64,000 nt of DNA from Candidatus Pacearchaeota archaeon (GCA_027021195.1 JALUUW010000003.1:4843-68842); one strand, 5' to 3'; shown: positions 18,214-21,775, counted from the first letter of the stretch. Made by a program: numbers and translations. The notes: generated by a model not told the origin, from the sequence alone.

Positions 18214-20064
18214 ATGGGAAAAAGAGTTCAAGCGTCATGTCTTTTAGTGATATCTCTGCTTTTTGTAATTCTATCAGCATCTTTTATGGCTGCAGAAGGC
18301 AACTCAACAAGTTCTGATGCGGACAAAATCAATAAAGCATATGGGTGTCTTGAAGATAAAGTAAAGGGAAAATGCCCCTCTCTTTCTCTGGAAGAGAGAA
18401 TTTTCTCTCTATTAGCTATAGGAGAGTGTAAAGAAGAGCTTCTTTCTAATTCAAAAGACGAGGAGTGCTGGCCAAAATCTGATTGCAAGGTTAAGCCTAC
18501 AGCTCAGGCTATTCTGGCCCTTAACGGAGCAAACAAAGATACAAGCAGGGCAGAAGAGTGGCTTTTATCTCAGAATTCCACTCCTTCTGAAATTGACTGG
18601 TTTCTGCAGATTGAAAGCGCAGAAGCCACAACATGTAATGTGGATTACTCAGGAAATTCTTATCAAGTATCTATTGACGCTGAAAAAAAACTGAGCTCTA
18701 ATGCAGGAAGTTGCCTCAGTCTTTATGGAGGGGATTACTGGTTTAGAATCTCTCCTTCATGCTATGATAACGAATTCGCAATTTCATGCGACAAGCCTTT
18801 TCTTACAACGCTTTTGTTTAAGAAAAAAACCTCTTCAACAATTCATGTCTCTCAAAAAACAAACTCTGCTGCATCAGAAGGGACAACAATAGAGAAGGTT
18901 GGCTCTCTTTGCTTTTCAAAAGGAGGCTCCTGTGATTATGAGGGGAGCTTATGGGCTGCTTTGGCACTAAACTCACTGGGTAAAGATGTTTCATCATTTA
19001 TGCCTTACCTTATAACAATGGCTGATGAGAATGGCAAGTATCTTCCGGAGTCTTTTTCCTATATTCTGACAGGATATGAGGATTTTCGCAATGAATTGCT
19101 CTTAAAACAAAAAAGCAACAAGTACTGGATGGAATCAGGGGACAAGTTTTATGATACTGCTCTTGCATTGTATCCGTTGCAGTATGAAACTCCTGAAGAA
19201 AAGACAAATGCAGTAAACTGGCTTTTGGAATCCCAGGACAATGAAGGGTGCTGGGAAGGCAACATAAGAAATACTGCTTTTATTCTTTATTCTGTCTGGC
19301 CAAAAGACTTTGCTGTTGATGAGGAGGATGAAAGAGTTGATTGCGAGAGTGCAGGATATTATTGCATGTCTGAGATAAACTGTGAAGGAGAGGTTCTTCC
19401 GGACTATTCCTGCTCAGGAGTTTTTAAGTGCTGCGACACCCCTATCCCTCTGGAAACCTGTGAAGAAATGGGCGGACAGGTCTGCAACTCAAATCAGGCA
19501 TGCGTTGAAGGAAGAGTTGAAGACTCTCCAGACCTTGATTTTGGAGAGGCTTGCTGCCTGGGTGGCTTTTGCGAAGACTCTGCCCCCGTTGAAGAAGAAG
19601 TGTCAGAATGCGAGTCATACGGAGGGGTGTGCAGAACAAACGGGTGTTTTGATGATGAAGAGGAATCTTCCTATTCCTGTGACTTCACTACTGACTCCTG
19701 CTGCACTGTAAAAATTTCTCCTAAAAAAAGCTATTGGTATGTCTGGGTGCTGTTGTTTTTAATAGGGCTTGTAGCTATTGGCATAGTTTTCAGGGATAAA
19801 TTGAGGCCTTATTGGTTTAGGCTGAAGTCAAAGTTTAAAGGCAAAGGCTCTGGAACTGGAAGCCCTGCTCCAAGAAGGCCAGGGTTCCCTCCTCCGTCTT
19901 CAAGAATTCCTTTAAGAAGGAGAATTATGCCAAGAAGAATAATTCCTCCGCAGCAGACTCCTCAAAATATTCCAAGACAATTTCGCCCTTCTGTTCAAAA
20001 GAAACAAAAATCAAGCAAGGAGCTTGATGAAGTTCTTAAAAAGCTCAGGGAAATGGGAAATTGA
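18214..20064 (+). CDS. secreted/anchored surface protein with prenyltransferase/terpene-cyclase-like repeats, Cys-rich stalk, TM helix and Pro/Arg-rich tail
   Basis: Signal peptide (ASCLLVISLLFVILSASFMA). Repeat example: NAVNWLLESQDNEGCWEGNIRNTAFILYSVW. Cys modules include CEEMGGQVC..CCLGGFC. TM segment is YWYVWVLLFLIGLVAIGIVF. The track start at 18199 is a TTG; the ATG is at 18214. Confidence 0.6.
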   Translation: MGKRVQASCLLVISLLFVILSASFMAAEGNSTSSDADKINKAYGCLEDKVKGKCPSLSLEERIFSLLAIGECKEELLSNSKDEECWPKSDCKVKPTAQAILALNGANKDTSRAEEWLLSQNSTPSEIDWFLQIESAEATTCNVDYSGNSYQVSIDAEKKLSSNAGSCLSLYGGDYWFRISPSCYDNEFAISCDKPFLTTLLFKKKTSSTIHVSQKTNSAASEGTTIEKVGSLCFSKGGSCDYEGSLWAALALNSLGKDVSSFMPYLITMADENGKYLPESFSYILTGYEDFRNELLLKQKSNKYWMESGDKFYDTALALYPLQYETPEEKTNAVNWLLESQDNEGCWEGNIRNTAFILYSVWPKDFAVDEEDERVDCESAGYYCMSEINCEGEVLPDYSCSGVFKCCDTPIPLETCEEMGGQVCNSNQACVEGRVEDSPDLDFGEACCLGGFCEDSAPVEEEVSECESYGGVCRTNGCFDDEEESSYSCDFTTDSCCTVKISPKKSYWYVWVLLFLIGLVAIGIVFRDKLRPYWFRLKSKFKGKGSGTGSPAPRRPGFPPPSSRIPLRRRIMPRRIIPPQQTPQNIPRQFRPSVQKKQKSSKELDEVLKKLREMGN

Positions 20065-20086
20065 TGGGGTATATAACAAGATAAGG

Positions 20087-20407
20087 ATGATTGCGGGCTT
20101 TATGATAAAGCAAAAATTTTCCAGATAATGCAAATACTCTGCAATTATATTTAGAAACAATGAAAAGATTTGGCGAGGAGATGATGTTTTTCGCAACATA
20201 GGTATTGGAACTGTTTGCTCTTCTTGTGGAAATCATTATGAATTTGATTTTTACCATGATAAGAAGATGTTAGAAAGACTTGCTGAAGGTCCGGAACAAG
20301 AATTGCGTTGAATGTTTTGTTCAGGATGGCTCTATCCGCTTAGCTATGAGGAAGGGTATCTGCCTATATCACTGACAGAATTATGCATTCGTGTTCTTTC
20401 TAAATAA
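20087..20407 (+). pseudogene. decayed ORF: one 107-codon frame interrupted by in-frame TAA (20126) and TGA (20309)
   Basis: Hand translation gives MIAGFMIKQKFSR*CKYSAIIFRNNEKIWRGDDVFRNIGIGTVCSSCGNHYEFDFYHDKKMLERLAEGPEQELR*MFCSGWLYPLSYEEGYLPISLTELCIRVLSK*. Confidence 0.35.
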
Positions 20408-20443
20408 AAAAACTTTATTAACCATATATTTCTTTACATACTT

Positions 20444-21775
20444 ATGAAAAAAAGCATAATTATTCTTGCAGTTTTATTACTGGCAATTCAATTTGCCTCA
20501 GCAGTTGAGTTTGACATGAAATCAGAATTCAGTCAGGGAGAAACAATTATTGCCAGAGTTTCTGGAAATTTCATAGACCCTGTTCTCAGGGAAAACATAC
20601 ATTTTTACAGGGGCAATGTGCCGACTTCAATAATCTATGATGTTGCAAGAATAAGCGGAGAGTTTTACATTTATGCTATTCTCTCTGGAAAAAAAGAGGG
20701 AAATTATTCAATAGTGATAGAGAATGCAAAATACATGAAAGGCTCTCAGGTAGTTGAAGATGCAATAACAAAAAACTTCTCAATAACCAACAGTACAGCA
20801 GATTTTTCAGTAGATCCCGGGTTTATTATAACAAAAGGGAAATTTTTTGTGCAGGTTCAGAATCTGAAGGATTATAAAATAAATGTCAATGCAAAAATAC
20901 TTGCAGATTCAGGAAACAATGGCGGAGGGCTTTTTGATTCTTTGTTTGGAAACAATGGTGAAACAAATGTTTATGAGAAATCAGTTGCTCTGAAATCTGG
21001 CGAGATTAAAAAGATTGATTTTGAATTGGCAAATCTAACTGGCTCAGAACTGACAACTCTTGAAGTAAGCAGTGAAAATCTAAAATACAGCATCCCTCTT
21101 TATATTATAACGAATATGACTGGCGAGGAAGGGGAAAAAGAAAAGGGGATTAAACTTAAATTTGATCCTTCTGAATTAAATGTATCAATCCCTACTTCTT
21201 CAAACACTACAAGAATCATCTATCTGCGAAATTCCGGAGAAGTGGCAATAGAGAATATTTCTTTATCAGTGTCTGATTCCCTGAAGGATTATCTTTCTCT
21301 TTCAGCATATGATATTAATGGGCTTGAGGGGAACTCAAGTGTAAAAATAGAGGTTTATCTTTCTTCAGGAGATATAGAAAGAACTTTTGAAGGGCAGATA
21401 ACTGCAAAAGCTCCTTCAGCAGCTGAAGGAAATGACGTCTATGCTTATGCTGCTGTTTTTTTGAATTTTGTAAAAGGGTTTAAGCCTTTGGACAATGAAA
21501 CAGGAGAGATAAACTATGGAAAAGAAAATACCTGTTCGGAAATGAATGGTGAAATCTGCGCTGAAAATATGGAGTGTTACGGAGACCTAAAATATGCTTT
21601 AGATGGTGTTTGTTGTTTGGGAAGCTGCAGGGAGCTTAAGGAGAGCCCTACAGGAAAAATAATCGGATGGTTAATAATAGTTCTTGTTGCAGTCTTCCTT
21701 ATATGGTTTTTCCGGTTTAAATACAAGGAGGCAAAAAAAGAAGTAAATCTTTTGAAAATTGCCAAGAGAAAGTGA
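20444..21775 (+). CDS. secreted surface protein with C-terminal Cys module and TM anchor
   Basis: Signal peptide (IIILAVLLLAIQFASA). The body is probably beta-rich. The C-terminus has CSEMNGEICAENMECYG..GVCCLGSC followed by a TM segment (IIGWLIIVLVAVFLIWFF) and a basic tail. Confidence 0.6.
   Translation: MKKSIIILAVLLLAIQFASAVEFDMKSEFSQGETIIARVSGNFIDPVLRENIHFYRGNVPTSIIYDVARISGEFYIYAILSGKKEGNYSIVIENAKYMKGSQVVEDAITKNFSITNSTADFSVDPGFIITKGKFFVQVQNLKDYKINVNAKILADSGNNGGGLFDSLFGNNGETNVYEKSVALKSGEIKKIDFELANLTGSELTTLEVSSENLKYSIPLYIITNMTGEEGEKEKGIKLKFDPSELNVSIPTSSNTTRIIYLRNSGEVAIENISLSVSDSLKDYLSLSAYDINGLEGNSSVKIEVYLSSGDIERTFEGQITAKAPSAAEGNDVYAYAAVFLNFVKGFKPLDNETGEINYGKENTCSEMNGEICAENMECYGDLKYALDGVCCLGSCRELKESPTGKIIGWLIIVLVAVFLIWFFRFKYKEAKKEVNLLKIAKRK

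Follow-up and report, generated by a model that had tools for sequence, protein, structure and literature searches.

Toroid binding domains, immunoglobulin (Ig)-like domains and small disulfide repeats are already known. Pacearchaeota-type DPANN archaea are uncultured organisms with tiny genomes that probably live attached to other cells, and DPANN archaea have lost biosynthetic pathways. A 64,000-nucleotide stretch from a Candidatus Pacearchaeota archaeon (GCA_027021195.1, JALUUW010000003.1:4843-68842), called the window here and numbered throughout from its first letter, contains two neighbouring open reading frames (ORFs), A (616 amino acids, aa) and B (443 aa), whose architecture and shared cysteine module are new variants of these known elements. 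With moderate confidence, A and B were read as a conserved pair of type I surface proteins of the core envelope of these archaea, of a non-catalytic receptor or adhesin type.

Architecture and conservation of ORFs A and B

Both ORFs were found where the sequence-only reading had placed them, and the peptide strings quoted in it were all present (CEEMGGQVCNSNQAC..EACCLGGFC, CESYGGVC..SCDFTTDSCC, CSEMNGEICAENMEC..GVCCLGSC, NAVNWLLESQDNEGCWEGNIRNTAFILYSVW and the Pro/Arg tail). The features of the two proteins are listed below; membrane segments were taken from hydropathy and from structure predictions with AlphaFold2 (AF2), whose confidence is given as the predicted local distance difference test (pLDDT).

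18214-20064 (+): ORF A, type I membrane protein, 616 aa from the ATG
18214-18294 (+): A putative signal peptide, about aa 1-27, by hydropathy; AF2 helix 3-28 followed by a low-confidence linker, cleavage presumed
18316-18567 (+): A predicted toroid, N-terminal half, helices aa 35-118
18592-18921 (+): A predicted beta-sandwich inserted into the toroid, aa 127-236, from AF2 strands
18937-19296 (+): A predicted toroid, C-terminal half, aa 242-361, with FYDTALAL (aa 312-319) and the QW motif (aa 336-347)
19342-19434 (+): A Cys module 1, aa 377-407, type 1, C-x6-C-x5-C-x9-C-x5-CC
19459-19572 (+): A Cys module 2, aa 416-453, type 2, common with B, C-x7-C-x5-C-x16-CC-x4-C
19609-19704 (+): A Cys module 3, aa 466-497, type 1, membrane-proximal, C-x6-C-x4-C-x10-C-x6-CC
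19726-19806 (+): A transmembrane (TM) helix, aa 505-531, by hydropathy and AF2
19837-20013 (+): A disordered Pro/Arg-rich cytoplasmic spacer, aa 542-600, AF2 pLDDT <50; RRILPP-like motif in 47/81 relatives
20017-20058 (+): A C-terminal amphipathic helix ELDEVLKKLREMG, aa 602-615; V607, L608 and L611 invariant
20444-21775 (+): ORF B, type I membrane protein, 443 aa
20507-21472 (+): B three predicted PapD/ASH/MSP-like beta-sandwiches, aa 22-118, 121-221 and 238-343, with 10 sequons
21533-21628 (+): B type-2 Cys module, aa 364-395, C-x7-C-x5-C-x11-CC-x3-C
21641-21772 (+): B TM helix, aa 400-428, followed by a basic tail with NLLKIAKRK at its end, by hydropathy and AF2

ORF A was composed of a signal peptide, a toroid head interrupted by a beta domain, three Cys modules, a TM helix, a Pro/Arg tail and a C-terminal helix, and ORF B of a signal peptide, three beta-sandwich domains, one Cys module, a TM helix and a basic tail. 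By hydropathy, each protein had a signal-like N-terminal segment and exactly one C-terminal TM segment (residues 505-531 in A and 400-428 in B) with a basic tail after it. The earlier statement that both proteins end in a Cys module, a single TM helix and a basic tail was confirmed, whereas its placing of the common module next to the membrane in A was not, because this module was the middle one of three (aa 416-453). An in-frame TTG was located five codons 5' of the ATG of A and overlapped the stop codon of the upstream primase gene; the ATG was taken as the start because the homologues of A begin with MKKxV.

ORF A contained 31 cysteines, one within the signal peptide and an even number of 30 in the ectodomain. 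When 36 homologues were aligned, 26 of these 30 were invariant and the other four were kept in at least 90% of the sequences. The six cysteines of B were all located inside its module and were invariant in the alignment of 33 B proteins. N-glycosylation sequons numbered 10 in B and two in A. Judged from these sequence signals, A and B would be secreted, disulfide-bonded and displayed on the cell surface.

The AF2 model of A, run with the 36-sequence alignment, had a mean pLDDT of 81, with values above 90 for aa 40-360. In this model the ring was formed by helices 35-118 and 242-361, with an all-beta domain (aa 127-236) between them, and showed the (alpha/alpha)6 toroid fold of class II terpene cyclases. 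A profile of aa 236-366 compared with the whole PDB matched only class II terpene cyclases (1gsz, E=4.5e-4; 8pak, E=1.2e-3; 7xkx), and the matches ran through the QW repeats and the xDT[AG]LAL helix starts. One copy of the canonical QW motif was present in A (W336-L-x3-Q341-x3-G345-x-W347), instead of the series of QW-type repeats reported previously. Among 117 members of the A family, this motif was found in 92 and [FYW]DT[AGS]xAL in 101, and the DxDD[TS]A motif in none; the equivalent helix start of A reads GDKFYDTALAL. A CGEQ sequence within the toroid was likewise absent from all 117 members, and C[GA]EQ occurred in four of them, located in the stalk region. Since both motifs were absent, A was ruled out as a DxDD cyclase and as a thioester protein.

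The Pfam model PF13243 gave 12.7 bits on A against a gathering cut-off of 26.1, with a best E of 4.2e-4 among the 36 aligned members. The toroid is split by the beta insert, which is probably why a Foldseek search of the PDB with A returned nothing significant. The figures for the A head were ~16 against GH76 mannanases and 14.5-15.3 against intrinsic factor and transcobalamin, and cyclases scored higher. The alpha-alpha toroid of the sequence-only reading is supported by the AF2 model and by the PDB profile search, which found cyclases only; the Pfam and Foldseek checks did not reach significance. We conclude that the head of A belongs to the terpenoid-cyclase/prenyltransferase toroid superfamily, that it is nearest to the class II cyclases without having their catalytic acid, and that it is predicted to be extracellular.

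The AF2 model of B (mean pLDDT 80) consisted of three beta-sandwiches, a low-confidence linker, a two-stranded Cys module and a TM helix. The predicted domains were the seven-to-eight-stranded beta-sandwiches typical of the PapD-like/ASH/MSP type of Ig-like fold. A fusexin or HAP2 class II fusogen was ruled out for B, as the matches were at the level of the Ig domain only. About one fifth of the B homologues (P0127, P0149, P0175, P0177 and P0195) were ~540 aa long and had a cytoplasmic extension ending in YHKxSCRxxKLI...GYKPCKVC, which resembles an Ada-type zinc finger; the B of the window was without this extension.

ORF A had at least 912 homologues with 50-60% identity over the full length, all labelled hypothetical and lacking a precomputed Pfam domain; those few that carried a name came from metagenome-assembled genomes of Nanoarchaeota or Pacearchaeota. 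ORF B had at least 221 homologues with 40-58% identity. When relatives of A were sought in one genome per species, they were encoded in at least 307 species genomes. A set of 81 related loci (1.27 Mb, 4944 ORFs) was used for comparison, 80 of which came from species-representative genomes, the best 80 of these at least 307, and were labelled Pacearchaeota, Woesearchaeota, Nanoarchaeota or unclassified archaeon. Naming by Pfam and NCBIfam gave only a sub-threshold SQHop_cyclase_C match for A and nothing for B. No annotation or paper covering the A family, the B family or the module was found, including in the literature on Pacearchaeota surface or cysteine-rich proteins, on DPANN and SHC, and on DPANN and ESCRT.

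Stalk modules and the cytoplasmic tail of A

The type-2 framework, C-x7-C-x5-C-x11-16-CC-x3-4-C with ExxGG after the first cysteine and D before the CC pair, was present in A at residues 416-453 and in B at residues 364-395. The two modules were aligned by hhalign with a probability of 97.7% (E=1.6e-12), and probabilities of 97.7-99% were obtained when the A and B modules were compared with each other and with 176 instances from other proteins. Within the 418 ORFs of the window, the profiles of the A and B families each found the module of the other (E=8e-5 and 4e-5) and nothing else; the module profiles found nothing in the Cys-rich proteins at 8690-14769. In the 81 loci, the A-module-2 profile matched 53 of the 74 B proteins and the B-module profile 35 of the 81 A proteins. 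No convincing third protein with the module was found among the 4944 ORFs, where one ORF reached E=0.87 with the A profile and none was found with the B profile.

Beyond these loci the module was common. A profile of 34 positions searched against 1.84 billion representative proteins gave 307 clusters at a cut-off of E<=1e-3. The top 147 clusters comprised 61 B-like proteins, 19 A-like proteins, some with up to five copies, and 67 other proteins with two to six tandem copies. Nearly all of these proteins had a signal peptide and a few had a C-terminal TM segment. The consensus, TCxExGGxIC-x5-C-xG-x5-[AS]xD-x3-CCxGxC, covered ~34 aa, and the spacing C-x7-C-x5-C-x12-CC-x3-C was found in 108 of the 176 instances from other proteins. 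Partner domains of the module included CARDB and cupredoxin/COX2. Proteins made almost wholly of the module had no match in Pfam or NCBIfam, and the module profile had none in the PDB. The top match of the search, P0241, was rejected as a low-complexity false positive with no domain-level match.

The reciprocal profiles and the hhalign probability of 97.7% thus bear out a Cys module common to A and B, and the 307 clusters refute its restriction to these two proteins. The type-2 module is an extracellular repeat that occurs widely and has so far lacked annotation. Its best explanation is a generic spacer or repeat domain in many secreted proteins of these organisms, and such generic use in tandem argues against a specific device for docking A to B. 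The module would give a domain annotation to hundreds of secreted proteins now called hypothetical. When 20 module proteins were looked up by name, only two carried an organism label, one Pacearchaeota and one Patescibacteria; these two labelled proteins suggest that the module spans archaeal and bacterial ultra-small lineages. In P0244, P0246 and P0250, type-2 modules alternated with a C-x4-C-x5-C-x4-C motif (e.g. CENVNCPSNQKCVNGTCVLK), which may represent a further small domain without annotation.

Modules 1 and 3 of the A stalk were aligned with each other by hhalign (67%, E=5e-5) and each more weakly with module 2. The six cysteines of beta-defensins are spaced C-x4-8-C-x3-5-C-x9-13-C-x4-7-CC, and both modules fell within this spacing, with gaps of 6, 5, 9, 5 and 0 in module 1 and 6, 4, 10, 6 and 0 in module 3. 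A profile of the A stalk matched only three distinct sequences in the PDB, namely two variants of tick carboxypeptidase inhibitor (1zlh, E=0.0037; E=0.0063), which we take to consist of two beta-defensin-like domains, and gallinacin-11, a double beta-defensin (6qeu, E=1.1). The full-length A profile weakly matched hBD-3 (1kj6, E=0.31) and platypus DLP-1, and Pfam Defensin_beta_2 matched 3 of the 36 A members below threshold. The AF2 model of module 3 had a short helix and three strands, with cysteines at defensin-like positions when compared with those that hBD-2 presumably has. These signals agree with one another, yet they are weak and driven by the cysteines.

A conserved amphipathic juxtamembrane helix followed the TM helix of A. 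At the other end of the disordered spacer, the terminal helix motif ELD[DE]VLKKLKEMGK was found in 65 of the 81 relatives. More distant A-like proteins (720-940 aa; e.g. P0253 and P0256) had the same head, four to five type-2 modules and the same terminal helix, KTEEQLEKTLKKIKELTK, so the tail motif predates the Pacearchaeota-type family. The MIM1 consensus, [DE]xxLxxRLxxL[KR], is found at the extreme C-terminus after a flexible linker. Compared with it, KTEEQLEKTLKKIKELTK and ELDDVLKKLKEMGK kept L4, L8, L11 and K12 and were missing R7. Among the 32 ORFs of the window scanned with Pfam, no MIT/Vps4-type ATPase was found, only two AAA ATPases of the CDC48 type. A MIM2 motif in the Pro-rich tail was also considered and rejected, since visual comparison showed no fit to the published consensus (PMC5840170).

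It is possible, though doubtful, that the domains of the A stalk have a true beta-defensin (trans-defensin) fold, from which the type-2 module would derive by a shift of disulfides, and that the C-terminal MIM1-like helix links the receptor to a cytoplasmic partner. If so, these would be the first trans-defensin-type domains in prokaryotes, used as a stalk and as a widespread tandem repeat in proteins secreted by ultra-small organisms, and the animal beta-defensin scaffold would be much older or would have a convergent twin. The defensin-like stalk modules raise a testable question on the age of that fold.

Genomic context of the A and B genes

The gene order around A and B was near-invariant in the 81 loci: p495/p262/p1247/p276, PCNA, primase, A, B, p178 and the LTD protein. 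B was located directly after A in 70 of the 73 loci that extended at least 1.5 kb downstream. Three further features of this region are as follows.

16589-18202 (+): primase gene with PriS and PriL-like domains, by Pfam
20399-20437 (+): AT-rich, conserved element upstream of B; its TTTATTAA box (20414-20421) is located 30 nt 5' of the B ATG
21779-22315 (-): p178, 178 aa, between B and the LTD protein, conserved in position in most loci, with a Lys-rich C-terminus

In the window, exactly 11 nt separated the primase stop codon from the ATG of A, and the same gap recurred in 23 of 71 loci; given this gap, A and the primase are probably co-transcribed. Across the clade, a gene for replication priming and one for a surface protein would then apparently share a transcript. 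The spacer between A and B measured 379 nt in the window, more than that of most relatives, and was conserved only in its last ~40 nt. In many relatives it was ~30-90 nt, with a median of ~88 nt by a first-ATG heuristic. A blastn search with the element before B gave matches in at least 15 loci (E<=0.032), several of which, when compared with the end of A, lay just after A; the element is probably an archaeal promoter of B. The remaining spacer (20065-20398, ~330 nt) had no blastn or tblastx match in the 81 loci and no Rfam match, and Rfam on 15500-23500 gave chance-level matches only.

Most of the other scanned ORFs of the window were housekeeping genes, including three aminoacyl-tRNA synthetases, topoisomerase I, a RadA-like protein, eRF1 and the two CDC48 ATPases. 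The fixed synteny in 81 loci and these neighbours indicate a block of the core chromosome instead of a variable island or mobile element, and a mobile or viral island was ruled out on the same grounds. The proposed ~14-kb surface-proteome island, said to be interrupted only by PCNA and primase, does not hold in this form: the region is a block of fixed synteny, the module is absent from the Cys-rich proteins at 8690-14769, and p178 is a further interruption. The p178 protein is probably cytoplasmic; its counterpart in one related locus (L001) carried Pfam MJ0538 (PF27325), and the window copy gave no such match.

Several other observations were made in the window. The 262-aa and 276-aa proteins (10179-10967 and 14771-15601, both on the minus strand) start with KRKGQVTIFII and KAKRSQVTIFII, each followed by a hydrophobic stretch, and these N-termini look like class III (type IV pilin-like) signal peptides. 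Their genes flank the Cys-rich 1247-aa and 495-aa genes, and the four-gene set was conserved in related loci. Three radical-SAM/SPASM enzymes were encoded in the 64-kb window (550-1716, plus strand; 5109-6170, minus strand; 50317-51624, plus strand) of this very small genome, one of them close to an LD-carboxypeptidase-like gene (2391-3416). The CDC48-type double-AAA ATPases were arranged in tandem (55104-57398 and 57805-59988, both on the plus strand) with a 127-aa ORF between them. The G+C content was 0.38-0.43 over the surface-protein block at 8001-20000 and 0.29-0.37 in the adjoining 2-kb bins.

Receptor-type reading, alternatives and known systems

In the receptor or adhesin reading, the A toroid would be a catalytically degenerate homologue of the class II terpene-cyclase repeat and would serve as a ligand-binding head with an inserted beta-sandwich. 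Its ligand may be a conserved hydrophobic or isoprenoid molecule, a glycan or a partner protein. The three modules of ~32-40 residues, each with three putative disulfides, would form a rigid stalk that keeps the head at a distance from the membrane, and the disordered spacer and conserved helix presumably dock a conserved cytoplasmic partner. With its three glycosylation-rich Ig-like sandwiches on a single stalk module, B is probably a co-receptor or sheath protein beside A.

Several points weigh against this assignment. The ectodomain of A is 50-60% identical among homologues, and its C-terminal half has a mean column identity of 64%, which is more like an enzyme or machine than an adhesin; at this level of conservation, catalysis through other residues (E243, D310 and D314) is conceivable. 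A possible physical interaction between A and B is read from the adjacency of their genes only, and B apparently has a promoter of its own, whereas A seems to be transcribed together with the primase.

Alternatively, A could be a scavenging receptor that captures cobalamin, in the manner of transcobalamin and intrinsic factor, or isoprenoid lipids from a host, compensating for pathways that DPANN archaea lack. The cobalamin binders gave the longest Foldseek alignments (probability 0.80-0.84, 364-393 columns), A combines a toroid with a beta domain as this function would suggest, and its strong conservation would suit an invariant small ligand. However, the Foldseek E values of 0.37-0.39 were insignificant, the beta domain is inserted in A and C-terminal in the cobalamin binders, the cyclases scored higher and alone matched at the sequence level, and no transporter gene adjoins A. 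We regard this function as unlikely.

It is rather unlikely that A and B form the main S-layer-like lattice of the envelope, with the toroid and Ig domains as structural bricks without a ligand. Such a role would fit two type I proteins with C-terminal anchors that occur in essentially all genomes of the clade, the 10 sequons within the 443 aa of B, and the frequent occurrence of Ig-like and PapD-like domains in surface layers. S-layer proteins usually diverge fast, however, whereas A keeps 50-60% identity in hundreds of species; A has only two sequons, and its conserved cytoplasmic tail helix suggests signalling or anchoring, not a passive lattice.

An active extracellular enzyme working through the toroid centre of A, either a non-canonical class II terpene or meroterpenoid cyclase or a glycoside hydrolase of the (alpha/alpha)6 type with glycans or lipids of the host or envelope as substrates, is improbable, for although the head is very highly conserved, with E243 and D314 invariant and D310 nearly so, DxDD[TS]A is missing from every one of the 117 members, no Pfam or NCBIfam enzyme family was matched, the sequence matches are limited to the structural QW and DTA repeats, and the disulfide-rich extracellular setting would be far from polyprenyl-diphosphate substrates.

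The main observation not fully explained by any of these four readings is the unusually high conservation of the A head. Few surface proteins of the clade are as well conserved as A and B, and their occurrence in hundreds of species at a fixed genomic position makes them leading candidates for parts of the core envelope or of an apparatus for host contact. Both are concrete targets for antibodies, cryo-electron tomography labelling and heterologous expression.

Among known systems, A was closest to the class II terpene cyclases (1gsz; drimenyl-diphosphate synthase, 8zg0; single-domain MstE, 6sbb; PF13243), with which it has the QW and [FYW]DT[AG]LAL motifs in common. It differs from them in having no DxDD(T/S)A, in scoring below the Pfam threshold and in its single toroid split by a beta-sandwich, and also in being predicted to be extracellular, disulfide-bonded and TM-anchored. 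The thioester domain (TED) proteins, such as alpha-2-macroglobulin, C3, CD109 and TEP1, resemble A in the extracellular binding role presumed for it, and weak Pfam TED_complement matches were found in 5 of the 36 A members. Unlike them, A has no CGEQ in the toroid and no macroglobulin (MG) or CUB domains, and the nesting is reversed: the beta domain lies within the toroid in A, whereas the toroid lies within a CUB domain in the TED proteins.

The beta-sandwiches of B differ from PapD-like/ASH/MSP domains in having no sequence-family match and in their predicted position outside the cell, where a Cys stalk and a TM helix would anchor them. EGF-like and TNFR-type stalk repeats are likewise small six-Cys units arranged in tandem arrays in secreted proteins, also next to the membrane, whereas the type-2 module has a distinct Cys framework and no match in Pfam, NCBIfam or the PDB. 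Trans-defensins have been described only from animals (PMC11561630). In comparison with beta-defensin-fold proteins, the modules of A are acidic and embedded in a large membrane protein, whereas defensins are cationic secreted peptides.

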